Shown: in pieces, positions 11,013-37,054 of the stretch
Position numbering within the stretch: the stretch's first letter is position 1
Layout of the letters: each line of letters begins with the position of its first letter
Assembly: GCA_902630885.1 (NCBI GenBank)
Contig: CACOWI010000007.1
Location: forward strand, 6,787 to 70,786
Source: an uncultured SAR86 cluster bacterium
GTDB lineage: Bacteria; Pseudomonadota; Gammaproteobacteria; Magnimaribacterales; D2472
Length of the DNA: 64,000 nucleotides
Direction of reading: 5' to 3'
Made by a program: the position numbers and the translations under genes
The notes under the pieces: generated by a model
Told to the model about the DNA's origin: nothing
Seen by the model: the letters and a program-made list of their open reading frames with translations, nothing else
Database searches by the model: none

Positions 11013-13016
11013 TTAGGAATTGATTAAAGCTATATCCTCAGGTTTAAGTAGTTCTTCATCTAAATTTTCTATCAATGGTTTTAGATTTTTAGCATAAGGC
11101 TTCCATCTGTGCATACCTGATTTATTTATTGGTTTTCTTACTTGTTCTGAGCTAGCGGTCCTAACTGATCTATCTGTTTCATAGAATGTTATACAAGATT
11201 CTTCAAATGGGAGTTCAAGGAAATCAAGCATTCTTTTTACCTGTCCCTCTAAATCATCGATGATATCCTCATTATTTACTCTTAAAATTTTATTTGGAAG
11301 TACCTTATCCCAATGATTCATTAGCTTTACATAACTATTATAATAACTTGCAGCTTCAGCCAAACCATAAGTGAATTCTTGTCCTTGAGCAAATAGTTGT
11401 TTAAACATACTAAAACAACAATCCAATGGATATCTTCTTGCATCGATAATTTTTGCATTTGGAAGAATTAAGTGTATAAGTCCAATATGGCGAAAATTAT
11501 TTGGCATTTTATCAGTAAACCTTGGGGCTTCTTTTCTGTGCATTTTAGTGTCATTAATAAATAATTTTCCTAGCTCCATTCTTTTTTCTTGCGATAAAGA
11601 TTTCATACTTTTAGGATAATTCCCTTCGTTGCCATATATGTCATCTCCCCTTAAACCTTGAGCTATAGATAAAATATTTGGTAGTTCAAGAGTTCCATCA
11701 ACCATGGAGTGTGATGCAAGTATTTGTTCAATTAGAGTAGATCCAGCTCTTGGAAGACCCAAGATAAAAATCGGATCATTGGACTCACAGCCACCTTTTC
11801 CTAGATTTTTAAAAAAACTATGATTACAAGTATCTATTTGTGCTTGGAGTTCTTTATCCATCTTCTCAATAGTGTATTTACTTTGTTCATTTTTTATTTT
11901 GTTACCTTTATCAAGGTTTATAAAAGCTTCATCATATTCCTCAATAGCCTCACATGCTTGTGCTAAAGCAAAGTGAAAATATGCTTTATCTTTTAGTGTT
12001 AAATCAAGTCTTTTTAATTGAGTTCTCATCATATTTATTTCATCACTTGTAAATTTATAAGTTTTAAGATTTGAAAGAGAAAAATATGCCTCTCCATGGT
12101 CGTTTTTTATCTTATAAGATGATTTATAACTATTAATTGCATCATTAGTATTTCCAAGAGTTTTTTCTGCGTGGCCTTTCGAAGTAAATACGCTAAAATT
12201 ATATGGATTTTTTTCTATTATTTTTTCAAATAACTCAATTGCATCAGCATGTTGACCATTCTGCATGATTTCGCTTGCTTTTTGTGCTTGATATGAAAGA
12301 TTATCAGGATATTGTTCACATAAGATATTTACTTGCTCCATTGTCTTTGCAAACTTTTGTTTTAGTCTTAGGATTAGGGCATATTTCATTCTTATCTCAC
12401 CATCATTTGGACTAAACTTCACAGCATTTTCTAATAAGACTTCTGCATCATCAAAATATCCAAACTTTTTAGCAATATCAGATAACAGTGACATTGCATA
12501 AACATTTGTTGGATTTTTCTTGAGAAAGTCTCTACATTTTTGTTCAGCAATTGCCAACCTCCCCTCATTTAAAATTTGACTTATGTAAAGAAGAATACTT
12601 GGTAGAGATTCAAGTTTATTAATTTGTTCATATGCGTGATCTGCAGCAGGTTTATTATTTTTTTTAACAAAATAATTGAACAGAGACTTCCATGAAGATA
12701 TTAATGCTGGATTTAATTCACAAGCCTGTCTGTAATATGAAATTGAATCTTCTTCTTTGCCCATTACTTTGTTAAGGTGACCCAATTCTTGATACGCTCT
12801 ACCCATATCCGGCGCTTGAGACAATAAATTATTTAAATAATTTTGTGAATCTTTGTAGTTTTTTAAGTATCTAGAACAAACTGCAGCAAAATACAAACTG
12901 TCGATATGATATGGATCCTTCGCTAAGTTGGATTCAAGAAAACTTAAAGCTTCAACAAATCTACTATCTCTAATTGCCTTAGAGGCTCTTTCAATATCTA
13001 ATTTGATTTGATCCAT
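11013..13016 (-). CDS. TPR-repeat sulfotransferase (Sulfotransfer_3 type)
   Basis: N-terminal TPR helices; 5'-PSB loop 'IFILGLPRAGSTLIEQIL'; 'DKMPNNF'; 3'-PB 'RRYPLDCCFS'; 'TASSEQVR'. Confidence 0.9.
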   Translation of the reverse strand: MDQIKLDIERASKAIRDSRFVEALSFLESNLAKDPYHIDSLYFAAVCSRYLKNYKDSQNYLNNLLSQAPDMGRAYQELGHLNKVMGKEEDSISYYRQACELNPALISSWKSLFNYFVKKNNKPAADHAYEQINKLESLPSILLYISQILNEGRLAIAEQKCRDFLKKNPTNVYAMSLLSDIAKKFGYFDDAEVLLENAVKFSPNDGEIRMKYALILRLKQKFAKTMEQVNILCEQYPDNLSYQAQKASEIMQNGQHADAIELFEKIIEKNPYNFSVFTSKGHAEKTLGNTNDAINSYKSSYKIKNDHGEAYFSLSNLKTYKFTSDEINMMRTQLKRLDLTLKDKAYFHFALAQACEAIEEYDEAFINLDKGNKIKNEQSKYTIEKMDKELQAQIDTCNHSFFKNLGKGGCESNDPIFILGLPRAGSTLIEQILASHSMVDGTLELPNILSIAQGLRGDDIYGNEGNYPKSMKSLSQEKRMELGKLFINDTKMHRKEAPRFTDKMPNNFRHIGLIHLILPNAKIIDARRYPLDCCFSMFKQLFAQGQEFTYGLAEAASYYNSYVKLMNHWDKVLPNKILRVNNEDIIDDLEGQVKRMLDFLELPFEESCITFYETDRSVRTASSEQVRKPINKSGMHRWKPYAKNLKPLIENLDEELLKPEDIALINS

Positions 13017-13054
13017 AAAATTATTATGAATTTATTATTACATATCTTAAAAAT

Positions 13055-13080
13055 AAAAAGGGAGTACAAACTCCCTTTTT
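13055..13080 (-). terminator. Rho-independent terminator after TBDR
   Basis: AAAAAGGGAGT-ACAA-ACTCCCTTTTT hairpin with T tracts on both strands. Confidence 0.85.
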
Positions 13081-13101
13081 ACTTTTTAAGTTTAACTACC
13101 G

Positions 13102-15696
13102 TTAAAAGTTCTTTTTAACTCTTATACCAATTGTTGTTGGTCTAATATAAGCAACACGTTGTCTATCAAAAACAAATGTATTACTTATTTCAGCTCTTTC
13201 ATCAGTAACATTATCAACATAAAGCTCTGCAGTTAAATCATCATTGGTTATACCTGCTCTTAGATCGATATAACTATAACTAGCCTGTCTTGCTTTGTTA
13301 GGTTCCATAATGTCTGAAAAACTATCATCTGAGTATGTGAACTGGACTTGTAAGTGACCAACATTTCCTGCAGTCATGCCCCATTCTTGTCTTACTCTCA
13401 CATTACCCTGCATACCAGGAGCGAATGCTAGTTCTTCACCGACAACAACATCATTTGTTGGTACTAATTTCTCAGTAATTTCAGTATCTAAGAAAGAGAA
13501 AGCACCAGCAACTGATAATCCTTCAATATTGGTGAAATAAGTAAAGTCTCCTTCAAGTCCTTTGATAGTCGCATCAGCAGCATTATCGGAGAAGAATAAG
13601 TTAACAATACTAGGATCAAAAATTGTACTTTGTAATCCTGTTACATCAACATAGAAGGCACTACCATTAAATCTTAGCTGGCCATCTTTAGTGATAGTTT
13701 TCCAACCAAATTCATAGTTAGTTATTTCATCAGTATCTACTTCTGGTTTTACAGTATAAGATCCATCAGCATTTGAAGATCCAACAGGTCTATTAAGAAG
13801 ACCTGGTCTGAAACCTTCTGACCATGTTACATAGTACATGATACCGTCATCAGGATTCCATGACACTGTAGCTTTACCAATTAAACCATCAGTTTCAGCT
13901 TTATCAGGATATCCATTAGCATTACCTGGAGCATACTGAACAGATAGATTAGAACCAAATCTCTGTTCATCTGGATTTCCAAAACCATTACCGAAAGAGG
14001 AGTTTGCACTACCTTCAAAATCAACAGCAATGTCATACCATCTGGCTCCTAGTGTAAGTTCAGCTGTATCAGATAAAGCATAATTAACCTCACCGAATAC
14101 ACCTTTTTGCTCATCAGTTCTTCTTATATCATTAAAGAAAATTACTGGTTCAGAGAAAGGTCCAGCTGAGAACCAGCCTGCTCCAGCCCTAACAGCGGAT
14201 TTACCACTATCAGATCTGTCCCCAGTAACTGATATATCAGTTAAAGCATAGTTAGCCGCATATGTTATATCATTAGCTAATGATCCAGGATATGTAAACA
14301 AGTTCAACTCTGTAAGTTCGGTATCACTCATAAACACACCAGCTGTTAGTGACATTTTGTCATTTATTGGAGCATTAATTCTAAACTCGTGACTTTCAAC
14401 TTTAGTATTTGTTGTTGAATCAACAAATAGATCAGATGTACCACAACTTCCTGTTGGAACTCCGCCAGGAGCAAAAGATGTGTAAGTCACATAGTAATCA
14501 CAAATGTAATATGGAAGGTATTGTCCAACAAATAAATAATCAGTGTAATCAACTATTTGATTTGTTTCTCTGTCTGTATAAGCACCAGCATAAACAGCTT
14601 CAAGCTCACCTATAGAACCTTCTAATGTAAGGCTCATATTTTCATACTCATCACTTATGTGATCATCACTATATCTTTGTATTTCTAAATCGCCTAAATT
14701 AGGATCAGCGAAGAATACACCATCAGATTCAATTGTTTGCTCAGCATAAACTAATGTTGCGTTCCAATTATCACCAATTTCTTGACCAATTGAAGATCTA
14801 AAGCCCTCATACTCAGTTCCATTTACATTGTCTTCGATTAAAGCATCAGTTTTAGCAAATGTAACTCCTGAAAGATCAGCTCCTGCTTGGAAACCAGCTC
14901 TTCCTGATGAAACAGGTAAACCGTTCTCTCTAACAGCACCAGCTTCTCTAAAACGTGCTGACATACTAGGGTCAACATTTCCAGCAACTTGATCAATGTA
15001 TCCACCTCTTCTATCTCTATAAGCAACAAATCTCCATGTTGTTGAATCTGTAAGAGGTACGTTTGTCATAACTTCAAGTTTCGTTCCTGTGTCACCCTCA
15101 GGCATAAATCTTGTTTCAACTTCAACGTTACTTTCTGTCACGCCTTGTTTTGGCTTATTTGTAATCATCCTTACAACACCAGCTTGAGAACTAGCTCCAA
15201 ATAGCGTTCCTTGAGGACCTGCAAGTACCTCTATACGAGCTACGTCAGCAGCATAAACGTCTAAGTTTCTGCCAGGTTGAGCTAAAGGTTGCTCATCTAG
15301 ATAAAATGACACGTTAGGCGCTAGACCAGCTACACCAGCTGTTGTAAGGTTTGGTGTAGTAGATGCTAAACCTCTGATATAAATAGTACTCTGTCCGGGA
15401 CCTGAGCCACCAGCAGTAACTCCTGGAAGTTGCATGAGGTAGTCTTCAAAAACATTTATACCTCTCTCTTCTAGTGTTTCTTCTGCCAAAGCACTTACTG
15501 AAAGTGGAACATCTTGTAAACTCTCAGATTTTTTACGAGCTGTAACTACCACTTCTTCAATCGTTGCATTTTGAGCAGCAATGTAACCACTGAAAACAGA
15601 TGCATTAATTACTGCAAAAGTAGACAGAGATGGTAATATCGCTGGTATTAAAGAAGGTACAACATCCTTCCGTATTTTGTTTAATTTATTTAACAT
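13102..15696 (-). CDS. TonB-dependent receptor
   Basis: TonB box 'IEEVVVTARK', plug 'RIEVLAGPQGTLFG', C-terminal aromatic residue (..VKKNF). Confidence 0.93.
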   Translation of the reverse strand: MLNKLNKIRKDVVPSLIPAILPSLSTFAVINASVFSGYIAAQNATIEEVVVTARKKSESLQDVPLSVSALAEETLEERGINVFEDYLMQLPGVTAGGSGPGQSTIYIRGLASTTPNLTTAGVAGLAPNVSFYLDEQPLAQPGRNLDVYAADVARIEVLAGPQGTLFGASSQAGVVRMITNKPKQGVTESNVEVETRFMPEGDTGTKLEVMTNVPLTDSTTWRFVAYRDRRGGYIDQVAGNVDPSMSARFREAGAVRENGLPVSSGRAGFQAGADLSGVTFAKTDALIEDNVNGTEYEGFRSSIGQEIGDNWNATLVYAEQTIESDGVFFADPNLGDLEIQRYSDDHISDEYENMSLTLEGSIGELEAVYAGAYTDRETNQIVDYTDYLFVGQYLPYYICDYYVTYTSFAPGGVPTGSCGTSDLFVDSTTNTKVESHEFRINAPINDKMSLTAGVFMSDTELTELNLFTYPGSLANDITYAANYALTDISVTGDRSDSGKSAVRAGAGWFSAGPFSEPVIFFNDIRRTDEQKGVFGEVNYALSDTAELTLGARWYDIAVDFEGSANSSFGNGFGNPDEQRFGSNLSVQYAPGNANGYPDKAETDGLIGKATVSWNPDDGIMYYVTWSEGFRPGLLNRPVGSSNADGSYTVKPEVDTDEITNYEFGWKTITKDGQLRFNGSAFYVDVTGLQSTIFDPSIVNLFFSDNAADATIKGLEGDFTYFTNIEGLSVAGAFSFLDTEITEKLVPTNDVVVGEELAFAPGMQGNVRVRQEWGMTAGNVGHLQVQFTYSDDSFSDIMEPNKARQASYSYIDLRAGITNDDLTAELYVDNVTDERAEISNTFVFDRQRVAYIRPTTIGIRVKKNF

Positions 15697-15855
15697 AGTT
15701 TCCCCTAATTAAGAAATTAATAGGACAAGGTTACTAAATATCTAAAAACTATGCAAATTTAGTTTATTTTATTTATCTTTTTTATATTTATAACCATCCA
15801 CCAGAGTGGAAATTTAACATTAATTATGTTTCACTAGACCTAATTTAAATCCTCT

Positions 15856-17349
15856 ATGAATAACTTAAGTAAACCAAGATTTTTAATTTCAATTATACTT
15901 TTATCATTTATTACAGCAGTTGTATCATTAAATTCAGATATATCTGAGTCATTTTTTCTTGATTTGCAAGCTTTTTTATCAAAATATCTTGGTTGGATGA
16001 TAATCTTAATAGCTAATGGATTTGTAATTTTCGCTTTTTTTCTTATTTTTACAAAGTATAAAGACATAAAACTAGGCGGTATTGAAGCTAAGCCTGCATA
16101 TTCGTATATAAATTGGATTGCTATGTTATTCAGCGCAGGTTTGGGCATTGGTTTATTGTTTTATGGTGTAGCTGAACCAATAATGCATCTAAACTCATAT
16201 CCAGGGATGATAGATGGTGATGCATCATTCAATGCCGGAAAGGCTATTGGATTAGCAAATCTTCACTGGGGTTTACATGGTTGGGCTATTTATTCCCTAT
16301 TAGGATTATGCTTTGCCTTTGCTTCATATAATAAAAAACTTCCTTTTAGAGTCAGTTCCTTATTAGGTCCTAAAATATCAAATAATAAGCCTTTAGCAAT
16401 ATCAATAGATATTATTGCAATACTTACAACAGTTCTTGGTGTAACAACTTCTTTAGGATTAGGCACGATTCAGATTAGTTCAGGATTAGAATATGTTTTT
16501 TCAATACCTGAAAGCTTTTCGAATCAAATTATTATTATCGCTCTTATTACTTTGATCGGTTTAACCAGTGTTTGTTTAGGTTTAGATAAAGGTATTAAAA
16601 GATTATCTCAACTAAATATGATCCTTGCATCCTCGTTAATGGCATTCATATTTATCTTTGGACCAACTGTTTTTATATTGAATGCATTAATTCAAAATTT
16701 TGGTTCATATGTGAACACACTTATAGAGTCAGCAACATGGACAGAAGTTTATTCGTCTTCATCATGGCAAGATGGATGGACATTGTTCTTTTACACATGG
16801 TGGTTTGCATGGGCGCCATTTGTCTCTCTATTTATTGCAAGAATATCTTATGGAAGATCAATAAAAGAATTTATTATTGGTGTGTTATTTGTTCCATCAT
16901 TAATTGTTTTCTTATGGATGGGAATTTTTGGAAATGCAGGCATATACCAAGTATTAAATGATACAAGTCAATTAAATGAAATTGTTAACAACAACTACAC
17001 AGTAGCCCTATTTGCGCTATTTGATGTTTATCCAATACCAACATTAATATCGATTTTAGCCTTGACTATAATTGTGACATTTTTTGTTACATCATCTGAT
17101 TCTGGTGCTCTTGTAGCATCTATGCTTTCATCAAAAAGTCATGTCGGTATTCATGATGACTCTCCGATTCTATCGAGAGTAACTTGGGCAATACTTTTAG
17201 GTATTATTGCAGCTGTCCTATTATACAAAGGAGGCCTTACTGCTCTTCAGACTTCTGTAGTAATATGTGGAGTTCCTTTTTCTATAATTGTTGTATTTGC
17301 AATTAGGCATTTTTATAACTCTCTTGAATCAGAGCTTGAAAAATATTAG
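15856..17349 (+). CDS. BCCT family (betaine/choline/carnitine) transporter
   Basis: 'WIAMLFSAGLGIGL', 'HWGLHGWAIY', 'WWFAWAPFV', 'FFVTSSDSG'. Confidence 0.92.
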   Translation: MNNLSKPRFLISIILLSFITAVVSLNSDISESFFLDLQAFLSKYLGWMIILIANGFVIFAFFLIFTKYKDIKLGGIEAKPAYSYINWIAMLFSAGLGIGLLFYGVAEPIMHLNSYPGMIDGDASFNAGKAIGLANLHWGLHGWAIYSLLGLCFAFASYNKKLPFRVSSLLGPKISNNKPLAISIDIIAILTTVLGVTTSLGLGTIQISSGLEYVFSIPESFSNQIIIIALITLIGLTSVCLGLDKGIKRLSQLNMILASSLMAFIFIFGPTVFILNALIQNFGSYVNTLIESATWTEVYSSSSWQDGWTLFFYTWWFAWAPFVSLFIARISYGRSIKEFIIGVLFVPSLIVFLWMGIFGNAGIYQVLNDTSQLNEIVNNNYTVALFALFDVYPIPTLISILALTIIVTFFVTSSDSGALVASMLSSKSHVGIHDDSPILSRVTWAILLGIIAAVLLYKGGLTALQTSVVICGVPFSIIVVFAIRHFYNSLESELEKY

Positions 17350-17489
17350 TCTAATTCTTCATCTAATTGCTTTAACTCATCTTCATCCATCTCATCTTCA
17401 AAAATTAAGTCATTATTAGAATTAAATTTCTTTGCAACAATAAGTGCAGCAACAATAACGATAAGTATGATTCCAATTTGATATAACAT
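17346..17489 (-). CDS. Small single-TM protein with acidic tail (47 aa; not in ORF track)
   Basis: MLYQIGIILIVIVAALIVAKKFNSNNDLIFEDEMDEDELKQLDEELD; its stop overlaps the BCCT stop. Confidence 0.65.
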   Translation of the reverse strand: MLYQIGIILIVIVAALIVAKKFNSNNDLIFEDEMDEDELKQLDEELD

Positions 17490-17547
17490 TGATTGAATTA
17501 TTATAATTAAGACTTACCTATATAATAACTCAAAAAATAAAAAATAA

Positions 17548-18099
17548 ATGGACGCACTTGAAAATATATTGAATCGAGTCTCTGCTAGAAGCCTTAAAGA
17601 GCCACATCCATCGAAAAAAGAGATGGATATAGTTTACAAAGCTGCATTGAGAGCACCTGATCATGCTTGGCTTAGAACAACTAGTTTTATTGAGGTTAAG
17701 GGTGAAAGCTTAAAAAAATTATCAAACATTTTTGTAAAATATGGAAAATCTGTTCCGGATATATCTGATGAAGTTCTAGAAAAATATAAAAATGCTCCTT
17801 ACAGAGCTCCAATGATTATAATTTTAGTTAATACATTTAAAGAACATCCAAAGGTACCTGCAATCGAACAAAAATTATCCACTGCAACAGCTGCTCAAAA
17901 TATAATGCTTGCTTTGAATGCCATGAAATATTCTTGTATTTGGAGAACCGGAAAAATGGCATTCAATGAGCTTATACAAAATGAACTTGGTCTAGCTAAA
18001 GATCAAGAAATTTTGGGTTATCTGTATATTGGAACTGAATCAGGCGAAAAGAAGAAAATTCCAAATTTAGATATTGATGATTTTGTAAGTTACTTATAG
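17548..18099 (+). CDS. Nitroreductase, YdjA-like
   Basis: 'NRVSAR', 'RAPDHA', 'RAPMII', 'IWRTG', 'GYLYIGT'. Confidence 0.88.
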   Translation: MDALENILNRVSARSLKEPHPSKKEMDIVYKAALRAPDHAWLRTTSFIEVKGESLKKLSNIFVKYGKSVPDISDEVLEKYKNAPYRAPMIIILVNTFKEHPKVPAIEQKLSTATAAQNIMLALNAMKYSCIWRTGKMAFNELIQNELGLAKDQEILGYLYIGTESGEKKKIPNLDIDDFVSYL

Positions 18100-18471
18100 A
18101 CTTTTATTCTTATATCTTAAAGCAGCTGTGAATGCCATTGAGGCAAATACAATCTCTGCTATTAACGATGAAATACCTAAAGGCGCATCATGACTGATAC
18201 TTGCAACAATATTAAAAGTTGCAGCAAACAAGTAAATCATTCCACAGCAAAATATAAACTCATATTTCTTTGATAATAAAGATAAAAAACACATAACAGA
18301 TGAAGCTAAAAAGAAAGCAGTAAAATCCCTTATCTGTGTATTTCTTCCATCACCATCAAGATATGGCATGCCAAGTGCTTCAGATGCAGATGCAGGAATA
18401 AAAATCCATTGCAATGCTATTAAAAATAAAACAACTCCAAGTACTGCTGATAATGTATTTGCTATTTTCAT
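18094..18471 (-). CDS. Hypothetical 4-TM membrane protein (DUF4345-like)
   Basis: Hydrophobic helices; 'ALGMP..DG.GRNTQIRD'. Confidence 0.65.
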   Translation of the reverse strand: MKIANTLSAVLGVVLFLIALQWIFIPASASEALGMPYLDGDGRNTQIRDFTAFFLASSVMCFLSLLSKKYEFIFCCGMIYLFAATFNIVASISHDAPLGISSLIAEIVFASMAFTAALRYKNKSL

Positions 18472-19166
18472 AATTGTATAGTTTCTGTATTTTCAATTTG
18501 GTTATTAGATATTATAGAGTCATTTTTATTTACTAAAAAACAATTTTTTTTGTTAGCAAAACTTACAGAATATTTTGGAACACCATTTACTAAGTGAAGA
18601 GCACAAAAGCCTTCAATGGCTATGCATTCTGATATAAGTTCATCATTAAGAATTTTATTAACAAATGGTATTCTCTCAGGCTCTTCATCATAATGAGGGC
18701 AACATATACCTTGAACAAAACCAAGGCATGGAATAATAGCTTGATTATCCTTCCAAGAATCAGTGATACCTTTTTCAAACCAACAAATTGCGCCAGCACT
18801 TACGCCGCTCATGATAGTACCTTTCTTGTAGGCTTTATATAAAATCTTATCTAGTTCCCAGTCTCTCCATACCGCCAACATACTCTTTGTATTTCCACCA
18901 CCAACAAAAATTATGTCCTGTTCTTTAATATGATTTTCAAGATTAATAGTTCTCTTAAAAAAATCAATGTGAGATGTTTTGCAACCAAGAGAATCAAAAG
19001 CTTTATAGAAATTTTCAATATATTTTGAGTCATCTCCAGTCGCAGTAGGAACAAAACAAACTGAAGGATTTTTTTTATTTGACTGTTCTACAATATATTT
19101 TTCAATTTTAAGTTCTTTTATTTCTCTTCCAAAACCTCCACCACCAATTGCAATAATCTGTTTCAT
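18468..19166 (-). CDS. Peptidase E (family S51)
   Basis: 'IAIGGGG', 'VGGGNT', 'GVSAGA' (Ser), 'CPHY' (His). Start moved to ATG 19166. Confidence 0.88.
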   Translation of the reverse strand: MKQIIAIGGGGFGREIKELKIEKYIVEQSNKKNPSVCFVPTATGDDSKYIENFYKAFDSLGCKTSHIDFFKRTINLENHIKEQDIIFVGGGNTKSMLAVWRDWELDKILYKAYKKGTIMSGVSAGAICWFEKGITDSWKDNQAIIPCLGFVQGICCPHYDEEPERIPFVNKILNDELISECIAIEGFCALHLVNGVPKYSVSFANKKNCFLVNKNDSIISNNQIENTETIQL

Positions 19167-19167
19167 A

Positions 19168-20751
19168 TTAGTTATCAAGTTGAAGCGTTTTTTTAAGATC
19201 TCCAAGCCAAGGCTCAAAGTTATTCCACTGTCCAATCCCTTTTTTGTAAATAGGCTGTCGAACCTGTTCAGAACTCGGCGTTCTTACTGTTCTTTTAGTT
19301 TTATAAAAATTCAAACAGCTTTCCTCAAATTCTAAATCGCAATATTTTAATAATTGTCTAATTTGTTTCTCAGTATCCTCGATCATATTTTCATATAAAA
19401 CTCTGTGTACCTTTCCCGGAAGTACTTTATCCCAATGCTCCATTATTTTAAGGTAATCTAAATAATAATTACCTATTCTGTTTTGTGAATAGGTAAATCC
19501 CTGACCTGAGCCAAATAGTTGTTTATAGCAACTAAAACAACAGTCCATTGGATTTCTTCTTGCATCAATTATTTTTGCATTTGGAAGAATTAAATTAATT
19601 AATCCTATATGAACAAAATTATTGGGCATTTTGTCTATGAAGTAAGGTTTGTCTGTAACTCTTTGATCCAAAGTGTTTTGTATGTATGCTTCGCCCATTT
19701 TTTTAAATTCGTCTTTTTTAATTTGAGATAATGCTGAAGGATACTCAGACTTACTTTTTGTATCTTTTTTATTTGCTATTTTTCTTGATAAAGCAATAAT
19801 ATTTTGCAGTTCAGTTGTTCCTTCAACCAATGAGTGTGATGAGAGGATTTGCTCAATAAGGGTCGATCCTGATCTTGGTAGGCCAACTATAAATATTGGA
19901 TCTGAGTTTTGATCGCCCACACCTTCATATTGTTCAAAAAATTCTTTGGTAAAAAAACTTATTAGTTCATCACACTCATAGCTAAATTTCTTTGAATCCC
20001 ATGGAACCTGTTTACTCTTGAGTGTATTTCCTTTTATGTATGCAGCTATAGAGTTTTTATAATTTTTGTTATCTTCTTCTGCCTTGCCTAATGCAAATAA
20101 TAGATGAAAATAATCATCCATTTTAGTATCTTTACTACTTAAAAGTTCTTTGAGATCTTCGATATCATTAGTTGTGAATTGGTAAGTCTTTAAATTTGCT
20201 AGGCTCCAATACGCCTCTCCAAAACCAGTTTTAGTTGTAATTGCATTTTTATAAGCTTGAATCGATTCATCAAGTCTTCCTATTGCTCTTAATGTATGAC
20301 CATAACTTAAATACAGTTGATTATTTTCAATCTTTTTATTGTTAATAATAATTTCAAAAATTTTAATAGCTTCATCATGTTGATTAGCTAGTGCTAAATT
20401 TACAGCTTTTAAAGTAAGGTACTGAGGGTTATTTTTATCCTTTTCTAATAATATTTGTATTTGTTCTAAAGCCTCATAAGGTAATTGTCTTTTATAGAGT
20501 AAATTAGCGTAACTCAGTCTTGCTTCATCATAATCTGGTGACAAATCTAAAGCTCTAACTAATAAATATCCAGCATCTTTGTATGCTCTAAATTTAACCC
20601 CAATGTCACCAAGCAACTTCATCGCATTGACATCCAATGGATATTCTTTAAGGTAATTTCTTAAAATAGGTTCAGCTTTTTTTAATTTATTCTCAGCAAT
20701 TAATCTCGCAGCATCAAGCAATTCTTCAGGTATGTTATTTTTTGTATACAC
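19168..20751 (-). CDS. TPR-repeat sulfotransferase, second paralog
   Basis: 'IFIVGLPRSGSTLIEQIL', 'DKMPNNF', 'RRNPMDCCFS', 'TPSSEQVRQPI'; TPR N-terminus; GTG start. Confidence 0.9.
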   Translation of the reverse strand: MYTKNNIPEELLDAARLIAENKLKKAEPILRNYLKEYPLDVNAMKLLGDIGVKFRAYKDAGYLLVRALDLSPDYDEARLSYANLLYKRQLPYEALEQIQILLEKDKNNPQYLTLKAVNLALANQHDEAIKIFEIIINNKKIENNQLYLSYGHTLRAIGRLDESIQAYKNAITTKTGFGEAYWSLANLKTYQFTTNDIEDLKELLSSKDTKMDDYFHLLFALGKAEEDNKNYKNSIAAYIKGNTLKSKQVPWDSKKFSYECDELISFFTKEFFEQYEGVGDQNSDPIFIVGLPRSGSTLIEQILSSHSLVEGTTELQNIIALSRKIANKKDTKSKSEYPSALSQIKKDEFKKMGEAYIQNTLDQRVTDKPYFIDKMPNNFVHIGLINLILPNAKIIDARRNPMDCCFSCYKQLFGSGQGFTYSQNRIGNYYLDYLKIMEHWDKVLPGKVHRVLYENMIEDTEKQIRQLLKYCDLEFEESCLNFYKTKRTVRTPSSEQVRQPIYKKGIGQWNNFEPWLGDLKKTLQLDN

Positions 20752-20766
20752 TCAATTTCAATAAAA

Positions 20767-20791
20767 AAGGCTGTATCAAGGATACAGCCTT
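20767..20791 (-). terminator. Rho-independent terminator after second TBDR
   Basis: AAGGCTGTATC-AAG-GATACAGCCTT, followed on the minus strand by a T tract. Confidence 0.85.
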
Positions 20792-20810
20792 ATTTAAGTT
20801 TTTTTAATAT

Positions 20811-23066
20811 TTAATTCATCTTCCAACTGTATTTAATACCAAATGTTCTTGGTCTATTTACAGTAGTTAGTCTTTGAATATCTTCACTATTTATGTATAA
20901 CTCTGCAACTTCATCAAATACATTATCAAAATATAGTTGTAATGAAACTTGATCGTTTACATCCATAGTATACGAAAGATTTCCGATACCATATGAATCT
21001 TGAAATTCTCTATCATCAAAGAATAGATCATTGTACATACCTGCAACAAAAGCATAATTAAAATCAATTCTTGAATTATCAGATATTTCTGCGGTAAGTC
21101 CTATATTGCCCTTTGTGTCAGGAGTAAAAGGCAGATCTTGATCTTTTCTAGCCTCAATGTTACCTCTCAAAACATAATCTTCAGTAAGGACTGCATCATT
21201 TTTTGCAAATGCAAAAGTTGCTGAAAGCCTATCATTTAAAATAATTTGAGAATCTATTTCAAAACCCATACTTTGTGCCGCGCCTATATTATCAACAAGG
21301 CCAAGTAAAGAAATACTTGAATCAAACCATCCAAGCTGGATATCATCCCATTCCATAGTATAGGCTGCTCCATTTAACCTCATCCTTCCATCCATAAGAA
21401 TAGTTTTAAAACCAAATTCATAGTTCGTTAGGAAGTCAGCATCATATGTAGCGCCAAGCTGAGTAGTTCTGTTTGTACCACCCGGTCTGTAGCCTTCTGA
21501 TACAGTGGCGTAAACCATAGCATTTTCAGTTGCTTGGTATGAAATATTAAATTTAGAAATACTATCACTACCATCAAATTTGGAATTTACATTATCAGGT
21601 CTTGTAGTACTTCCATAAATAGAATTCGGCCACCATATTGTTCCAACAAATCCCTTTAGGGTTGTTTCGTTGTCAAAACTTCTATGTCCTAATGTAATTT
21701 CGGTTTTATCATTAAGCTGAATATAAACCTCTCCAAAAATAGCTGATTCTTCTTCATATCTAACTTGGTCAGTTTGATAATATAAATCCTTTGAGCCTGG
21801 TACAGCTGCATCTGGATTAATTTGAGGAACATGCCACTGAGCATCATAAGCTGTTTCATTTTCAGTCATGAAAGCACCGACTATCCAATTGAACATTCCA
21901 TCAGACTTTGAAGCAAGTCTTATTTCAGTCGTATCGTATTCCTGATGTGTATCATTTTCGAATTGGATTCTTGGATCTACACAAGGTCCAAAATAATATG
22001 AATAACAGGTGTAATAAGCTTCAACATATCCATCAATTGAATAGTGAGAGTAATCACTTAATACTTCGAAATCTCTTTCAAGACTAGAAGTTGTAAATGT
22101 GAGGTCAGCAAAACCTAAATCACCAGTGACAGATAATGAAAATCTGTCCCACTCATCATGAGTAGTATCATCATAAAATCTGCCAACTTTATATTTTCCA
22201 AGTTTATCAGGATTATGATCCCAGACACCATCAGTTTCAGTATCTTGGCCCATATAATTTACATCAATCTGCCAATTATCATTTAAATCAACCCTTAATG
22301 CAGCTCTATATCCTTCTTTAACAGCATCATTAAAGTTATCTTCAACAAAAACCTCATTTGTTCGAGTGATTCCACTATATGGAAAAGTAATTGAATCAAG
22401 AACTGAATCAATATAACCACCATCTTCGTCACTAAATCCAACGAATCTCAAAGCCATATTATTTGATAAAGGTATATTTACAAAACCTTCAACCATTGTG
22501 CTGTCATCACCACCAGAAGTAAATTCAGAGCTTAAGTTTGCACCTGCATCAAATTCACTTGATGGTTTGTTTGTAATTATCTTTAGGTTACCCGCTTGAG
22601 ATGCTGCACCATATAAAGTTCCTTGAGGTCCAGATAAAGCCTCAACTCTCTCAATGTCATAAACATGAACATCAAGGTTATCACCAATCATTGTTACTGG
22701 AGATTCATCCAGATAAATAGCAACAGCCGGCCCTTGAAGTGATTGATTAGAGTTACCTCCATCCGATATACCTCTCATGAAGATTTGACCTTGCCCAGGT
22801 CTTCTTTGTGTTGCTGATGCAGACGGTAATTGAAGAACGTAATCTGCAAAGTCTTTTATGTTTAAGTTATCTAACTCAGTTGCAGAAAGTGTTGAAACAC
22901 TAATGGGCACATTTTGAAGATTCTCTGATTTTTTTTGTGCTGTAACTACTATTTCTTCAACGGTTGCATCTTGAGAGAGAACATCCGATGCCATAAAAAT
23001 AGAAGAAGCAAAAACTGTCGCTTTTGTAACTGCTTTATGGACTTTTTCGAAATGAAATATATTCAT
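20811..23066 (-). CDS. TonB-dependent receptor
   Basis: 'VEEIVVTAQK', 'RVEALSGPQGTLYG', C-terminal 'RPRTFGIKYSW'. Confidence 0.93.
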   Translation of the reverse strand: MNIFHFEKVHKAVTKATVFASSIFMASDVLSQDATVEEIVVTAQKKSENLQNVPISVSTLSATELDNLNIKDFADYVLQLPSASATQRRPGQGQIFMRGISDGGNSNQSLQGPAVAIYLDESPVTMIGDNLDVHVYDIERVEALSGPQGTLYGAASQAGNLKIITNKPSSEFDAGANLSSEFTSGGDDSTMVEGFVNIPLSNNMALRFVGFSDEDGGYIDSVLDSITFPYSGITRTNEVFVEDNFNDAVKEGYRAALRVDLNDNWQIDVNYMGQDTETDGVWDHNPDKLGKYKVGRFYDDTTHDEWDRFSLSVTGDLGFADLTFTTSSLERDFEVLSDYSHYSIDGYVEAYYTCYSYYFGPCVDPRIQFENDTHQEYDTTEIRLASKSDGMFNWIVGAFMTENETAYDAQWHVPQINPDAAVPGSKDLYYQTDQVRYEEESAIFGEVYIQLNDKTEITLGHRSFDNETTLKGFVGTIWWPNSIYGSTTRPDNVNSKFDGSDSISKFNISYQATENAMVYATVSEGYRPGGTNRTTQLGATYDADFLTNYEFGFKTILMDGRMRLNGAAYTMEWDDIQLGWFDSSISLLGLVDNIGAAQSMGFEIDSQIILNDRLSATFAFAKNDAVLTEDYVLRGNIEARKDQDLPFTPDTKGNIGLTAEISDNSRIDFNYAFVAGMYNDLFFDDREFQDSYGIGNLSYTMDVNDQVSLQLYFDNVFDEVAELYINSEDIQRLTTVNRPRTFGIKYSWKMN

Positions 23067-23164: not shown

Positions 23165-24859
23165 ATGAAAAACTTAAAAGATTTAACTTTAATACCAATT
23201 TTATTGATACTAGTCGCATCATGTTCTAAAAGTGAATTTTCTTTTTTACCGCTTCAAACGCAATGGATTGTTGATGAAACAGAAGCAACAAGATGGTCAA
23301 TGGTAAAACATAATAACCTTCCCACATTGACTGGCTCAAAAGAATGGAAAAACTATATGAGTTTTTTAGAAAATGAATTTAAAAGGTACGGCGTTGTTGA
23401 TTTGCATAAAAATACTTGGGAGTTTGATAAATGGACTATCTCTGAAGATCCTAGCAATTGGACCCTTAAAGTTGAAGGAATTGATGTAAGGGTTGCATAT
23501 TATGGCGCTTATTCTGGTAAAACAGATCTTAATGGTGTCACTGCTGAAATGGTCTATTATGATCATAATAATCCACCTAGTGATATTAAAGATAAAATTG
23601 TAGTAATACCGACTAGAAAGCATCCAAGTAAGCCTTTTAGCACAAATTATTTAACTAATTACACCTACAACGAATATGAACATGTCATTGACGGTGATAC
23701 TCTTCCAGCACCATTTGAATTTGTAGATCCTGAAGTATCTTTCACATTTGATATTTGGTATCAACTGGCACAAAGACTTGACCAAATTCCGGAAGATGGT
23801 GAAGCTGCTGGTGCTGTGATTGTTTATGATATGGCATACGATAGAACAAAAGGTCTATATACTTTTCCAGTTCCGGATCATTATGAGTCGCCTACCTTGA
23901 TACTCTCCAGAGAAGATGGTGCAGGTGTTATTAAAGCTGCAAAAGCAAGCAAGGAAGCAACAATTGTTTTAAAAAGCAAAATAGAGAAATCTGAAGCATA
24001 TCAATTAATAGGATATCTGCCAGGTAGGCATTATGGAACTGATAAAGATGAACAGATTATTTTGACTAACCATACAGATGGACCATCTATTACTCAAGAT
24101 AACGGTGCTTTAGGTATATTAGGCATCATTAAATATTTCTCTAACATTCCTCAAGAAAAAAGAGATAGAACTCTGCTCATTTATCTTGACTGCAGGCATT
24201 ATATGCCTGGCATGGAACAAGCCCACAAAGATGTTTCATGGCTTAAAAAAAATCCCAACTTAAAAGATAAGGTTGTTGGTTTAATTCAAACAGAGCATTT
24301 AGGAGAAATGGATTTCAAAGAGGTAAACGGAGAAGTACTTCCAACAGGTTATGCAGAACAATCTTACTTATGGACAAGAAATAATGACTATCTTATTGAA
24401 TCTGCAAAGAATGCTCTAGATAGATATGGTTGGCCAAGAGGAATGCTTTCAGTTCCTGAAAGACCAGGTCCGAATGGTGATATTCAACAAGTCTGGTGGG
24501 GAGTTGGTATTATCGCATTAGCTAATGAACTCAGAGACAGTGAAGATTGTGATGAATATTCATGCAATGAAAATGGATTACAAACACCGGATGCTTGGGA
24601 TGGTTCAAGCTGTGAGGTTTGGACATGTTTTAATGTTCCTGCATATGGGCAAGGTGGTTTTTTAGGATATTACTGGAATAAATACTCAGATATAACTAAA
24701 TGGAACTCAGAATTATTTGTTCAACAAACCTCTACTATGATAGATCTCACGGGCATATTAATGTACAGCGATTTAGAAAAAATTAAGCCTATTCTTGGTG
24801 ATCAAAGTTTTAGAAATACAGACATGAGTATTGCAGCACCAATTGATATTGACGAATAA
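23165..24859 (+). CDS. Lipoprotein, PA-domain / M28 peptidase-like
   Basis: Lipobox 'LVASC'; 'ILTNHTDG', 'QDNGALG', 'TEHLG' resemble M28 metal ligands. Confidence 0.6.
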   Translation: MKNLKDLTLIPILLILVASCSKSEFSFLPLQTQWIVDETEATRWSMVKHNNLPTLTGSKEWKNYMSFLENEFKRYGVVDLHKNTWEFDKWTISEDPSNWTLKVEGIDVRVAYYGAYSGKTDLNGVTAEMVYYDHNNPPSDIKDKIVVIPTRKHPSKPFSTNYLTNYTYNEYEHVIDGDTLPAPFEFVDPEVSFTFDIWYQLAQRLDQIPEDGEAAGAVIVYDMAYDRTKGLYTFPVPDHYESPTLILSREDGAGVIKAAKASKEATIVLKSKIEKSEAYQLIGYLPGRHYGTDKDEQIILTNHTDGPSITQDNGALGILGIIKYFSNIPQEKRDRTLLIYLDCRHYMPGMEQAHKDVSWLKKNPNLKDKVVGLIQTEHLGEMDFKEVNGEVLPTGYAEQSYLWTRNNDYLIESAKNALDRYGWPRGMLSVPERPGPNGDIQQVWWGVGIIALANELRDSEDCDEYSCNENGLQTPDAWDGSSCEVWTCFNVPAYGQGGFLGYYWNKYSDITKWNSELFVQQTSTMIDLTGILMYSDLEKIKPILGDQSFRNTDMSIAAPIDIDE

Positions 24860-25564: not shown

Positions 25565-27040
25565 ATGATTAATATAAAATTAAATCCTCTTTGGAGCAAA
25601 ACAGTTTTAGTAATTACATTCAGTTTTTTGCTACTTCTGTCTTCTTATGTTCTTATTGATCCAGAAGGTAGTGCAAAAAATTTACTTAATATCTATAACT
25701 TTTTTGCAATAAATTTTGAATCATTTTTTTTGTATTTTGGATTTGGTGTATTAGTTTTCTTAATAATTGTAGCTATATCAAAAAGTGGCTCAAAAAAGAT
25801 TTTACTTCAGGGAAGAACAACTTATTCATATTTTTCATGGTGTTCAATGCTTTTTGCAACTGGCATGGGAGCAGCTCTTCTATATTGGTCAACTTATGAG
25901 TGGCTTGTTTATTATACAAATCCTATTACAGGCGAAGAGCAATCTTTGCTAAAGGCAAGATCATATCCATTATTCCATTGGACTTTTACAGGTTGGGCGC
26001 TATACATTCTGCCAACAGTATCGTTTGTTTTTTCTCTTATGAAAAATCCAAATACACCGCTTACTTTTTCAGGCATTCTTTTAAAGGAACAGTCTGGACC
26101 TTTAAGAATAATATTAGATATCTTTTTTATTGGCGCGATATTAACTGGTGCTGGAGTTGGTCTTGCACTCTCTTTTCCTCTCATGTCAGCTGCTGTATCA
26201 AAATTATTTAATTTAAACCAAACAATTTTTTTAGATTTTTTGATGTTATTAATATGTATGTTTATTGTTGCTATCAGCGTCTATAAGGGTCTTCAAAATG
26301 GTATTAGAAAACTTAGTAATTTTAATATCATCCTCGTAATTGTATTTTTAACGTTAATCTTATTGACTGGTCCAACTAAATATATTGTTATTAACACAAT
26401 TGAACCATTTGCATATATTATAAAAAATTACTTGTCACTAAGTTTATTAAAATCACAATACTCTCTCGACTGGACTGTATTTTACTGGGCATGGTACATA
26501 GCTCTCGCTCCAGCAGTGGGAGCTTTTATTGTAAATATTTCTAACAATAAAACTGTGCGAGAGTTAATATTTGGTGCTTTGATTGTTGGTTCACTTGGCA
26601 GTATATTTCATATAGGAGTTCTATCGAACATTTCAATTTTCTTTTATGAAAATGGTATCTTGGATGCACCAAAAATATATTTAGATCAATCATTGACATC
26701 ACATGCCTTGGTTATTGAAACAATCTCTTCTTTGAACTTTGGAACATTATTTTTAATTTTGTTTACTGTTATTGCTGTTGTATTTTTATGTACTACTTAT
26801 GATTCCTTGTCATATATTTTAGCAACTGCCTCAATGAAAAATTTCAAAGATACGCCGTCTAGAAGTTTAAGAGTATTTTTTGCAATCATAATTATGGTTC
26901 AACCTGCACTCATTATGTTCTTGGGTGGTAAAGACTCATTTATGTGGCTTTTAGTAGTAATATCTGTACCATTAATGATTATTTATCTATTTCTAATATT
27001 ATCTATTATCAAAAATGCAATTAAATTTAAAAAATCATAG
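25565..27040 (+). CDS. BCCT family transporter (divergent)
   Basis: 'WCSMLFATGMG', 'FHWTFTGWALY', 'WTVFYWAWY', 'TTYDS'. Confidence 0.88.
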   Translation: MINIKLNPLWSKTVLVITFSFLLLLSSYVLIDPEGSAKNLLNIYNFFAINFESFFLYFGFGVLVFLIIVAISKSGSKKILLQGRTTYSYFSWCSMLFATGMGAALLYWSTYEWLVYYTNPITGEEQSLLKARSYPLFHWTFTGWALYILPTVSFVFSLMKNPNTPLTFSGILLKEQSGPLRIILDIFFIGAILTGAGVGLALSFPLMSAAVSKLFNLNQTIFLDFLMLLICMFIVAISVYKGLQNGIRKLSNFNIILVIVFLTLILLTGPTKYIVINTIEPFAYIIKNYLSLSLLKSQYSLDWTVFYWAWYIALAPAVGAFIVNISNNKTVRELIFGALIVGSLGSIFHIGVLSNISIFFYENGILDAPKIYLDQSLTSHALVIETISSLNFGTLFLILFTVIAVVFLCTTYDSLSYILATASMKNFKDTPSRSLRVFFAIIIMVQPALIMFLGGKDSFMWLLVVISVPLMIIYLFLILSIIKNAIKFKKS

Positions 27041-27893
27041 AGCAAATATTTTTGAGAAAAATCCTTTTGATGTGAACAAAACATCAATTATCTTTGTGCC
27101 TGGAGCAGGAATGGATCATCGAATAATTTCAATGTTCAATCTAGAGGATTTATATGATGAATTTAATATTCTTGGTATAGACTTACCTGGCCATGGATAT
27201 ACTTCAGGTCCCATAGTTGATTCTATTAGAGATCATACAAATTTTTGTATCGATGTTTTCAATGAAATTGGAATTAGTAAACCAATTGTGATTGGTCACA
27301 GTTGGGGAGGATTAGTTGCATTAGATCTAGCATCAGAGTTCGAGAATGAAATGACCATATGCATGAATATTGCTTATCCATTCCTTGTGGGTGATATGTT
27401 ACTTGATTTTGCTAAAGGTAATTTAGATCAAGCTGTTGAATTTTTGATGAAATACGGAATTTATAAATTTCCAAAAACAGAAATTAAAACAAAAGGATTT
27501 GGAACAATGGGATCCGGATTTTATGGAAGATCGAAAGGCCAAATTAAATCACCATATGGCACAAAAGTTGTAGAAGACGATCCAGAAAGAGAAATAAAAC
27601 TATATCCACTAAAGAGATTATTTAATCAATCAGAAAAGGAAATAAGTTCAATCGACCTAAAATCTTGTAATATTTTTAGGTTAACAGATGATCAAATTTC
27701 AAAACTAGAAAATATTAAATATATATTTAGCGAAAAAGATAAGTTAGCAAGATTTAATCCTGAAAATATTCTCCTAAAGGATGTAGATCATGAAAAAGAT
27801 GTAGTAATTCTAAAAGATGTGGGTCATTTTCCTTACTTCGAAGATCCTGATCTAATATCAAAAGAATTAGTTAGAATTATCAAAGGAGAATAA
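27015..27893 (+). CDS. alpha/beta hydrolase
   Basis: 'DLPGHG', GHSWGG, 'VGHFPYFEDP'. Confidence 0.85.
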   Translation: MQLNLKNHRANIFEKNPFDVNKTSIIFVPGAGMDHRIISMFNLEDLYDEFNILGIDLPGHGYTSGPIVDSIRDHTNFCIDVFNEIGISKPIVIGHSWGGLVALDLASEFENEMTICMNIAYPFLVGDMLLDFAKGNLDQAVEFLMKYGIYKFPKTEIKTKGFGTMGSGFYGRSKGQIKSPYGTKVVEDDPEREIKLYPLKRLFNQSEKEISSIDLKSCNIFRLTDDQISKLENIKYIFSEKDKLARFNPENILLKDVDHEKDVVILKDVGHFPYFEDPDLISKELVRIIKGE

Positions 27894-28910
27894 TTTTTTA
27901 ATAATATATTCACTGCCCCATCTATCATTTGATCTGTAACATTTTGCAGCATTCAAATCACTTTGAATATCTCCAACACATGTTCCAAAATTTGTATATG
28001 AACTTATCCCAGTATCTTTATCATATCCAGCTTCTGGCCACATATGATCAGAGTTTAAATTCAAAATAGACATAATTTTAATGCCGCCTGAACATCCTGA
28101 ATAAACTATTTCCTTAAATTCTTCATAATGTTTGTAGAAAATTTCTTTTGAATTTTGACAATTAAACTTATTTTTCCATTTATCAATAAAAACAGATTGA
28201 CTTTCATAAAAAAGTCCATCGGATGATATTTTTTTGACTGGAGGAATGGTTGTATCATTTAATGAAGCGTATGAAATAAAATTTACAGGTATGTCTGGTG
28301 TACATGCAAAACCATATCTTGGTAGACCATTTACACTGATTGCTGCTTTGATTGATTCTGGATACATACATGCATATGAATTAACAAACATTCCACCAGA
28401 ACTATTTCCTATCAAATAAACATCTTTTACGTTATATTCATTTTGTAATTTTTCAATTAAATTTTTAATAAATTTAGTGTCATCAACGCACGGAGCCCAA
28501 CCACATCTACCTCGGTCACATTCTGGAAACTTTGGATATATGATTCTTTTATCATCAGCTAGACAATTATTTGATATTTCATTATGAGAGGTAGGTCTAA
28601 CGATGTCATTGAATGTTGTTACTAAAGTATTTTCTTGATCATAAAAATATGTGGATTCAGGATAAACTGCGATAAAATTATACTTATCTGCCAATTTATT
28701 AAATCCTCCAGATACCTCACTCTCAAAACCTGATGCAGTACCTCCATATCCATGAATTCCAAATACTATTTTTGTTTTAGTATCATTATTATAGGAATTT
28801 GGAACATAAATAAGATAATGTCTTAACATTCCATCTTCATAGATATATATCTTCTCCATATCAGCTGATAACAGATGGTTAATGAAAAATAATAAAAAAA
28901 TATATTTCAT
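27867..28910 (-). CDS. Exported esterase, PHB-depolymerase/LpqC-like
   Basis: Signal peptide; 'HGYGG', 'VDD..FI', GNSSGG, 'HMWP'; several Cys. Confidence 0.75.
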   Translation of the reverse strand: MKYIFLLFFINHLLSADMEKIYIYEDGMLRHYLIYVPNSYNNDTKTKIVFGIHGYGGTASGFESEVSGGFNKLADKYNFIAVYPESTYFYDQENTLVTTFNDIVRPTSHNEISNNCLADDKRIIYPKFPECDRGRCGWAPCVDDTKFIKNLIEKLQNEYNVKDVYLIGNSSGGMFVNSYACMYPESIKAAISVNGLPRYGFACTPDIPVNFISYASLNDTTIPPVKKISSDGLFYESQSVFIDKWKNKFNCQNSKEIFYKHYEEFKEIVYSGCSGGIKIMSILNLNSDHMWPEAGYDKDTGISSYTNFGTCVGDIQSDLNAAKCYRSNDRWGSEYIIKKLFSFDNSN

Positions 28911-36979: not shown

Positions 36980-37054
36980 AATAAAACACACCCCTATATG
37001 TGATAATTAAGTTATACAGATAATATATATCAAAATTCCAATAAGGACTATTAG

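Follow-up and report, generated by a model that had tools for sequence, protein, structure and literature searches.

The 64,000-nucleotide stretch analysed here (the window), part of a contig from an uncultured SAR86 cluster bacterium, contains two copies of a gene pair in which a gene for a TonB-dependent receptor (TBDR) is followed by one for a cytoplasmic protein that combines tetratricopeptide repeats (TPRs) with a sulfotransferase (ST) domain. The pairs, TBDR1-ST1 and TBDR2-ST2, are each a unit of a widespread two-gene module, and the conclusion that the module consists of one TBDR subfamily and its dedicated cytoplasmic enzyme is strongly supported. The original prediction had described two such copies, and its open reading frames (ORFs) proved exact. 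Domain searches confirmed their identity. Both receptors match PF07715 (Plug) and PF00593 (barrel) above cut-off, and both STs match PF13469 (Sulfotransfer_3), with the 5′-phosphosulfate-binding (5′-PSB) and 3′-phosphate-binding (3′-PB) motifs for the donor 3′-phosphoadenosine 5′-phosphosulfate (PAPS) present.

The whole host assembly (1.06 Mb, 79% complete, ∼31% GC) holds 12 Plug-domain genes, 3 Sulfotransfer_3 genes and 2 genes for carriers of the BCCT family. Both TPR-ST genes are located directly after a TBDR gene, and both BCCT genes are at most 3 genes away from a TBDR-ST pair. The arrangement is therefore more than chance. Among named proteins, the closest relatives of those in the window come from the SAR86 cluster. 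Positions are shown in Table 1.

Pairing of receptor and sulfotransferase genes

A profile made from 14 STs was used to search contigs of one genome per species, and of at least 577 places found the best 80 were kept (ST-first survey). A TBDR of the same subfamily is directly adjacent in 72 of the 80 loci, in the order ST>TBDR in 52, in the window's order TBDR>ST in 12 and divergently in 8. In two of the exceptions (L034 and L071) the neighbouring TBDR is truncated or frameshifted, and three (L006, L015 and L072) reach the end of the contig or locus, while in L005 and L065 a TBDR of the subfamily is 1.9 and 4 kb away, and in L004 a TBDR of another type is 1.3 kb away. When the search began from the receptor (TBDR-first survey, 80 loci), an ST gene was adjacent in 65 loci and within 5 kb in 6 more; 8 had none within 5 kb and 1 was uninformative. 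All 8 genomes with a locus of the 'none' class carry full-length TPR-STs elsewhere. The two surveys share part of their loci (L095, for example, coincides with L001) and cannot be counted as independent.

The genes also occur together at the level of the genome. Among 31 SAR86-order genomes tallied, 19 carry ST1/ST2-type genes, and the same 19 carry full-length relatives of TBDR1 or TBDR2; in the remaining 12 the best match to TBDR2 is ≤114 bits. When ORFs of at least 80 aa were clustered over the 80 loci, a size limit that places small precursor genes in other loci outside the reach of the clustering, there was no third conserved gene (the next cluster is present in 10 of the 80) and neither a precursor peptide nor a dedicated exporter is conserved beside the pair. 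The spacers in the window, at 59 to 159 bp, have no space for a precursor-peptide gene. Full-text literature searches, which did not extend to supplements, found no paper describing the TBDR-ST pairing.

The two copies in the window are strongly diverged, with 42% identity between ST1 and ST2 and 31% between TBDR1 and TBDR2 over 847 residues, yet TBDR1 and TBDR2 are mutual best paralogs among the 12 TBDRs of the genome (337 bits, against ≤96 for any other). The pair was therefore duplicated as a unit, long ago. The duplication seen in the original prediction is thus real, but it is not recent, and the copies are ancient paralogs belonging to different subfamilies, designated clades A and B below.

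Phylogenies, constructed with FastTree only, include 69 STs and their 69 partner TBDRs. They took in 67 of the 72 adjacent pairs, and 5 pairs with a TBDR ORF of <650 aa or an ST ORF of <480 aa were left out. The STs fall into four clades (A, B, C and D), with ST1 in clade A and ST2 in clade B. Every clade goes with a single gene order and has members from both Alpha- and Gammaproteobacteria. Every ST clade corresponds to exactly one clade of the TBDR tree, with 100% SH-like local support. Clade labels placed on the TBDR tree require 4 changes, the minimum possible, compared with a mean of 20.3 for shuffled labels, and none of 200 shuffles was as low. This one-to-one correspondence indicates that the pair is inherited, duplicated and transferred as a unit. 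The original prediction had proposed a dedicated system with one enzyme per receptor, to be checked by a gene-neighbourhood survey and a co-phylogeny; the two-way adjacency, the co-occurrence in genomes and the mirrored phylogenies give this strong support.

Some loci (L054 and L058) contain two or three ST-like genes and two TBDR genes in a row. In L054 the order is TBDR>ST, an ST-like gene on the opposite strand, and TBDR>ST, so that modules can be arrayed in tandem. The family is greatly expanded in one gammaproteobacterial genome (G037), where the TPR-ST profile matches 24 times; internal stop codons interrupt some of these matches.

In each copy the spacer between receptor and enzyme genes (85 nt in pair 1 and 59 nt in pair 2) contains a hairpin followed by a T-run. 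The strong hairpins noticed in the original prediction hold up on folding, as none of 200 shuffled sequences was as stable for either spacer. A terminator scan called the TBDR2/ST2 hairpin on the minus strand and the TBDR1/ST1 hairpin on the plus strand only. Metatranscriptome contigs from four runs of one study cover TBDR1 (13253-15703) and TBDR2 (20997-23023); among the contigs listed none lies on ST1 or ST2, save at depth 1 in one bin, and missing contig cover is no evidence on expression or termination. A promoter scan was set aside, since it gave 55 sites compared with 88 in shuffled sequence.

Features of the enzyme and the receptor

An AlphaFold2 (AF2) model of ST2 (predicted local distance difference test score, pLDDT, 92.8) shows a TPR superhelix (helices 9-274) joined to the sulfotransferase domain, which spans residues 285-527. 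The solved folds nearest to the catalytic half are TPST2, TPST1 and a tick TPST, all protein-tyrosine sulfotransferases, with template modelling (TM) scores of 0.58-0.68, followed by an olefin-synthase (OLS) ST at 0.53. Those nearest to the TPR half are OGT and SPINDLY (SPY), in which TPRs hold protein substrates. In sequence, the PDB entries that match the ST domain best are TPST1 (E 3.5e-5) and the CurM ST (E 7e-5). Alignment of ST2 with human TPST1 pairs GxPRSGxTL (5′-PSB), the Lys of DKMPNN and RR...S (3′-PB), and ST1 contains the same strings; the PAPS motifs had been called intact in the original prediction. These columns are invariant across an alignment of 47 STs. As PAPS-binding and catalytic residues do not vary, catalysis is under selection. 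Mean column identity in this alignment is 54%, and 10 of the 54 invariant columns are in the TPR arm. Weak matches of the TPR region to chaperone-type TPR proteins (LcrH/SycD) were also found. Residues 178-192 of ST2 (window ∼20176-20220, minus strand), where the TPR arm meets the catalytic domain, form the segment GEAYWSLANLKTxxF, in which S183, L184, N186, K188 and T189 are invariant in the 47 STs.

By its nearest relatives the enzyme is TPST-like, with a small sequence margin over the CurM ST. Animal TPST1 and TPST2 (PDB 5wrj, 3ap1 and 8w5z) are the best matches of the ST domain in both sequence and fold, with the 5′-PSB, Lys and 3′-PB aligned, but identity is only 17-21%. TPSTs are type II membrane proteins of the Golgi lumen without TPRs, whereas the STs here are leaderless and cytoplasmic and are fused to 6-10 TPRs. 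Because of the TPR arm and the lack of a membrane anchor, they are classed as TPST-like and not as members of the TPST family. No signal peptide or membrane segment was found in ST1 or ST2 by hydropathy, the only measure used in place of a dedicated signal-peptide predictor: the maximum Kyte-Doolittle mean over 19 residues is 0.30 and 0.41, respectively, for the first 40 window starts and 1.3 overall. These low values agree with the leaderless enzymes of the original prediction.

The AF2 model of TBDR2 (pLDDT 89) is a plug in a 22-strand barrel, with FyuA (TM 0.90), Fiu and PiuA as its nearest folds. These model-based matches are to receptors of the general siderophore type and say nothing about the cargo. 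TBDR1 and TBDR2 both begin with a hydrophobic N-terminus, a candidate signal peptide, followed by EE(I/V)VVTA, which by eye is a candidate TonB box. In an alignment of paired TBDRs, R331, D338, Y339 and Y342 of TBDR2 are invariant in all 49 rows. In the model the motif is at the end of strand 320-338 and starts a Tyr-rich loop of 29 residues (339-367), which is partly helical and contains two Cys. The motif is found at the equivalent position in only 2 of the 12 TBDRs of the genome, which are the 2 paired ones, and as a regular expression it matches in 74 of the 80 TBDR-first loci. The local Tyr density of the paired receptors, 8 in 25 residues for each, is the highest in the genome. Along the barrel, short turns alternate with long loops, and on this account loop 339-367 is probably extracellular. 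A complex prediction for ST2 with residues 322-372 of TBDR2 scored 0.00 with the controls not folded, and it carries no weight for or against.

A third TBDR in the window (33788-36991, minus strand), of 1067 aa with CarboxypepD_reg, Plug and OMP_b-brl_4 domains, is Oar-like and unrelated to the paired subfamily.

Candidate targets of sulfation

The enzyme might act on the receptor or on the imported solute, and the original prediction named both. The indirect arguments lean to the receptor, while the link to BCCT carriers in marine lineages keeps the solute alive as a target. Tentatively, and with rather less than even confidence, we propose that ST sulfates its own receptor before export. The OGT-like TPR arm would hold the unfolded receptor precursor in the cytoplasm, and the TPST-like domain, with PAPS as donor, would O-sulfate Tyr residues in the R-x6-DY-x-x-Y motif and the Tyr-rich stretch. 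After Sec export and barrel assembly this stretch would become the long loop between strands 7 and 8, which is read as extracellular. The sulfotyrosines could then provide a fixed anionic, aromatic loop surface that captures cationic cargo of the quaternary-amine type, and in marine lineages the linked BCCT paralog would move the cargo across the inner membrane. The hairpin behind the receptor gene may keep ST mRNA far below receptor mRNA, and PAPS may come from the minimal pair of an APS-kinase-like protein and an HxGH nucleotidyltransferase described below.

Several observations lean towards the receptor. They include the TPST-like fold, the OGT-like arm, the hairpin and an invariant DY motif in the sole conserved partner of the enzyme; Asp at position -1 of Tyr is the classic determinant of TPST substrates. 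Clades C and D, which make up 55 of the 69 tree rows, have no conserved inner-membrane carrier. The enzyme is also more conserved than the receptor, with STs across clades 41-64% identical to ST2 and their TBDRs 32-60% identical to TBDR2, and this fits an invariant acceptor better than a clade-specific cargo.

Precedents among surface proteins point the same way. In the HMW1C/HMW1 and Aah/AIDA-I systems a cytoplasmic enzyme encoded beside a surface protein modifies it before export, but the enzymes are glycosyltransferases and the substrates are adhesins, not transporters. RaxST of Xanthomonas oryzae is a cytoplasmic PAPS-dependent enzyme that sulfates Tyr of a protein exported later. Its system, RaxST-RaxX-RaxABC, includes a dedicated type I exporter and a small precursor peptide. 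Here neither is conserved; the conserved partner is a TBDR, and the enzyme has a TPR arm. OGT and SPINDLY share the architecture of a TPR arm joined to a catalytic transferase and differ in catalytic domain and chemistry. The Fiu-YbiX and PiuA-PiuC pairs, in which a TBDR gene is beside one for a cytoplasmic protein-hydroxylase-like enzyme of no known role, also combine a TBDR with an enzyme that resembles a eukaryotic protein-modifying one, and Fiu and PiuA are near TBDR2 in fold; the enzyme class differs and sulfation is not involved.

Other points weigh against the receptor as acceptor. Adjacency and co-cladogenesis are equally expected if enzyme and receptor share a small-molecule substrate, and DY-x-x-Y could be a mere ligand-binding or structural signature of the subfamily. 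The local excess of Tyr is slight, as another TBDR of the genome reaches 7 Tyr in 25 residues, and the extracellular side of the loop is a reading of the alternation of turns and loops, not a computed topology. The sequence match to the CurM ST, which acts on an acyl chain tethered to acyl carrier protein, nearly equals that to TPST1. TPR domains also scaffold polysaccharide enzymes, and 8qoy is among the fold matches of ST2. Finally, in the SAR86 order and in the marine loci with a carrier, 14 of the 80 in the TBDR-first survey, the BCCT gene beside the pair, often with an esterase gene, completes a solute route to the cytoplasmic enzyme.

Both BCCT genes of the window are where the original prediction had placed them, one divergent from TBDR1 with a gap of 159 bp (BCCT_a) and the other the third gene beyond TBDR2 (BCCT_b). 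Each product has a full-length PF02028 domain, but only BCCT_a passes the TIGR00842 cut-off. Fourteen loci from SAR86-order relatives were examined, and 11 of them, from two families, have TBDR-ST pairs that could be scored, 13 in all. A contig end truncates one more pair, and in 2 loci there is only a divergent ST gene without a receptor. A BCCT gene is within two genes of all 13 scorable pairs, always of the BCCT_a type with pair 1 and of the BCCT_b type with pair 2. Gene orders vary, and in L091 TBDR1, ST1 and BCCT follow each other on one strand with a 9-bp gap. Outside the SAR86 order the loci with a BCCT gene, which in the 14 of the TBDR-first survey is within 5 kb, are all marine (for example Glaciecola, Alteromonas, Halieaceae, Pseudohongiellaceae and Psychrobium). 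In three loci (L001, L037 and L076) assignment to the BCCT_b type is marginal, at 243-245 against 191-218 bits. BCCT was rejected as a universal member of the module, being present in only 4 of the 80 ST-first loci. The link is silent on the substrate of the enzyme, because carrier and receptor would co-diversify whichever is sulfated.

Other genes near the pairs include one for an alpha/beta hydrolase, which is directly beside BCCT_b in five loci (L081, L083, L084, L085 and L094) and at least 1.3 kb away in L090 and L092, and one for a COesterase-family enzyme beside BCCT in L001 and L037. Glaciecola (L042) encodes, just upstream of the TBDR, a GMC enzyme that resembles choline dehydrogenase and a BADH/PuuC-like aldehyde dehydrogenase, with scores below the equivalog cut-offs in both cases. 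GlpD and GlpT are neighbours in Emcibacter, and a PAF-acetylhydrolase-like enzyme in Arenicella. Genes that recur beside the pairs of clades C and D encode S9 and M20 peptidases, Rieske oxygenases, amine oxidases and class-III aminotransferases; any one of these types is found in 7-10 of the 80 loci. Together these predicted functions suggest a cationic amine cargo, a thread that was picked out after the matches had been seen and serves only as a lead.

If the cargo is the target, the TBDR would import a compound, perhaps an ester or conjugate of a quaternary amine, BCCT would carry it or its head group in, the hydrolase would free an alcohol, for instance of the choline or carnitine type, and ST would O-sulfate that alcohol, giving for example choline-O-sulfate as an osmolyte, a storage compound or a detoxified form. 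The matched BCCT paralogs of the SAR86 order, the placement of both host BCCT genes beside pairs, the hydrolase at the end of BCCT_b, the COesterase and choline-type oxidation genes, and the near-equal match to the non-protein CurM ST all fit such a route. It is nevertheless unlikely on balance. The carrier is missing from most ST-first loci and clades C and D lack a conserved one; the large conserved TPR arm is unexplained in a small-molecule enzyme; from clade to clade the ST varies less than the receptors, although each clade should have a different cargo; and import followed by sulfation has no recognised catabolic logic. Solutes of the size of choline also normally need no TBDR. We would give a small chance to a cycle, of the RaxX or siderophore type, in which ST sulfates a peptide or metabolite that is encoded elsewhere, secreted and recaptured by the paired TBDR. 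The specificities of TBDR and ST would co-evolve in such a cycle, the TPST-like fold is suitable, and RaxX is a precedent for a secreted peptide that bacteria sulfate on Tyr. The loci speak against it, as no exporter, precursor or third gene is conserved at the ORF sizes clustered and the spacers of the window are too short for a peptide gene.

It is similarly improbable that the enzyme modifies or chaperones another conserved protein of the uptake path (TonB/ExbBD, the tail of a carrier or a regulator, for example) or that its main role is as a TPR scaffold. The whole ST is very highly conserved between classes, which fits a universal partner, and the LcrH/SycD matches fit a chaperone, but the occurrence of one enzyme per receptor with mirrored clades argues for a receptor-specific relation, and a scaffold is difficult to reconcile with invariant PAPS-binding and catalytic residues. 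Adjacency without any functional link, which the hairpin between the genes of both copies might suggest, is effectively refuted by its retention across three gene orders, two proteobacterial classes and reciprocal surveys, and by co-occurrence in 19 of 19 genomes against 0 of 12.

A wider proposal is that sulfation of the receptor would be the first known Tyr sulfation of a bacterial outer-membrane transporter, forming a sulfotyrosine/aromatic trap for scarce cationic, quaternary-amine nutrients, with PAPS supplied in SAR86 by a previously unrecognised minimal synthase. Taken as a whole this is doubtful. Gram-negative bacteria take up nutrients with high affinity mainly through TonB-dependent transporters, and we know of no post-translational modification that tunes the ligand site of one. 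SAR86 are among the most abundant marine heterotrophs. That a receptor subfamily has kept a TPST-like enzyme across Alpha- and Gammaproteobacteria, with two copies in a streamlined genome of 1.1-1.3 Mb, suggests that nutrient capture involves an important step that has escaped study. With the receptor as target, Tyr sulfation would be added to the ways in which bacteria modify their envelope; with the cargo as target, the module would represent a new marine import-and-sulfate pathway for quaternary amines.

PAPS supply and further genes

Through the module, the origin of PAPS in SAR86, which has no known ATP sulfurylase, becomes a testable question. Searches of the host genome (79% complete) gave neither CysD/CysH (PF01507) nor Sat (PF01747). 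In a set of 31 relatives, of which many are 90-97% complete, only G027 has a strong CysD-type match (two weak ones barely exceed the cut-off) and only G019 has Sat. Outside the window, at C6:11278-12091 of the host genome on the minus strand of the locus, two overlapping ORFs predict a 143-aa APS-kinase-like protein and a 129-aa NMNAT-like nucleotidyltransferase with an HxGH motif. The former scores 29 bits against a cut-off of 21, with only the first 89 of the 152 profile positions matched. Both ORFs are present in 17 of 18 relatives of family f1 (plus the host genome), in 4 of 4 of f2 and in 0 of 4 of f3. In f4 the HxGH gene is found in 0 of 4, and the sole APS-kinase match is the canonical fused enzyme of G027. 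Sulfotransfer_3 genes are present in 18/18 (f1), 4/4 (f2), 0/4 (f3) and 1/4 (f4), so that over the relatives the two ORFs follow the sulfotransferases in distribution. The HxGH transferase is 63-87% identical across two families. In three f2 genomes (G022, G025 and G028) the two ORFs are beside a TPR-less ST gene, and in G019, also of f2, they are on different contigs, each near a TPR-less ST. The pair is a credible but unproven candidate for a minimal PAPS synthase.

In the host genome the third sulfotransferase, which is TPR-less and of 372 aa, is located at C6:70661-71779 (minus strand) and is not beside a TBDR gene. It is conserved in most of the ST-bearing relatives searched. Its neighbours here (cyclophilin, metallophosphoesterase and UmuDC-like genes) are uninformative.

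Table 1. Features of the two TBDR-ST pairs and associated genes, numbered from the first nucleotide of the window.
Feature	Position	Strand	Details
TBDR1, TonB-dependent receptor, clade A of the ST-paired subfamily	15696->13102	-	864 aa; Plug + TonB_dep_Rec_b-barrel
ST1, cytoplasmic TPR + Sulfotransfer_3 protein, clade A	13016->11013	-	667 aa; Sulfotransfer_3 E 1.2e-44
TBDR2, TonB-dependent receptor, clade B	23066->20811	-	751 aa; Plug + barrel domains
ST2, cytoplasmic TPR + Sulfotransfer_3 protein, clade B	20751->19168	-	527 aa; Sulfotransfer_3 E 3e-47
TBDR1 signature R376-x6-D383-Y-x-x-Y, then Tyr-rich segment with Cys (about residues 376-425)	14422..14571	-	8 Tyr in 25 aa
TBDR2 signature R331-x6-D338-Y339-x-x-Y342, then Tyr-rich loop 339-367 between strands 320-338 and 368-386	21966..22076	-	alignment + AF2 model
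Hairpin + T-run, TBDR1/ST1 spacer	13054..13081	-	-22.1 kcal/mol, z -5.1
Terminator-like hairpin, TBDR2/ST2 spacer	20767..20791	-	-17.4 kcal/mol, z -5.8
BCCT_a, betaine/choline/carnitine-type carrier, divergent from TBDR1	15856..17349	+	Pfam BCCT 535 bits; TIGR00842 above cut-off
BCCT_b, divergent BCCT carrier accompanying pair 2	25565..27040	+	Pfam BCCT 312 bits
Leaderless alpha/beta hydrolase overlapping the end of BCCT_b; module membership uncertain	27015..27893	+	adjoins BCCT_b in several other loci

Downstream of pair 2, an S51 peptidase ORF (PepE/cyanophycinase-like; 18468-19235, minus strand) overlaps the end of ST2, and its first internal Met comes shortly after the stop codon of ST2. 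The next ORF (18094-18471, minus strand) encodes a 125-aa protein with a hydrophobic N-terminus that belongs to no known family. As the order ST2, a 227-aa unknown, S51 and the 125-aa protein is kept in relatives, co-transcription of the S51 and 125-aa genes with ST2 is suggested. Further hydrolases surround the modules, at 8512-10209 (-), 23165-24859 (+), 27867-28910 (-) and 28907-29809 (-). Three have export-type N-termini, namely a gamma-glutamyltranspeptidase, a 564-aa lipoprotein-like protein, for which there is only a feature-based M28/carboxypeptidase-Q lead, and an esterase of the PHB-depolymerase family. Beside these is a lysophospholipase-like S33 hydrolase without a hydrophobic N-terminus.

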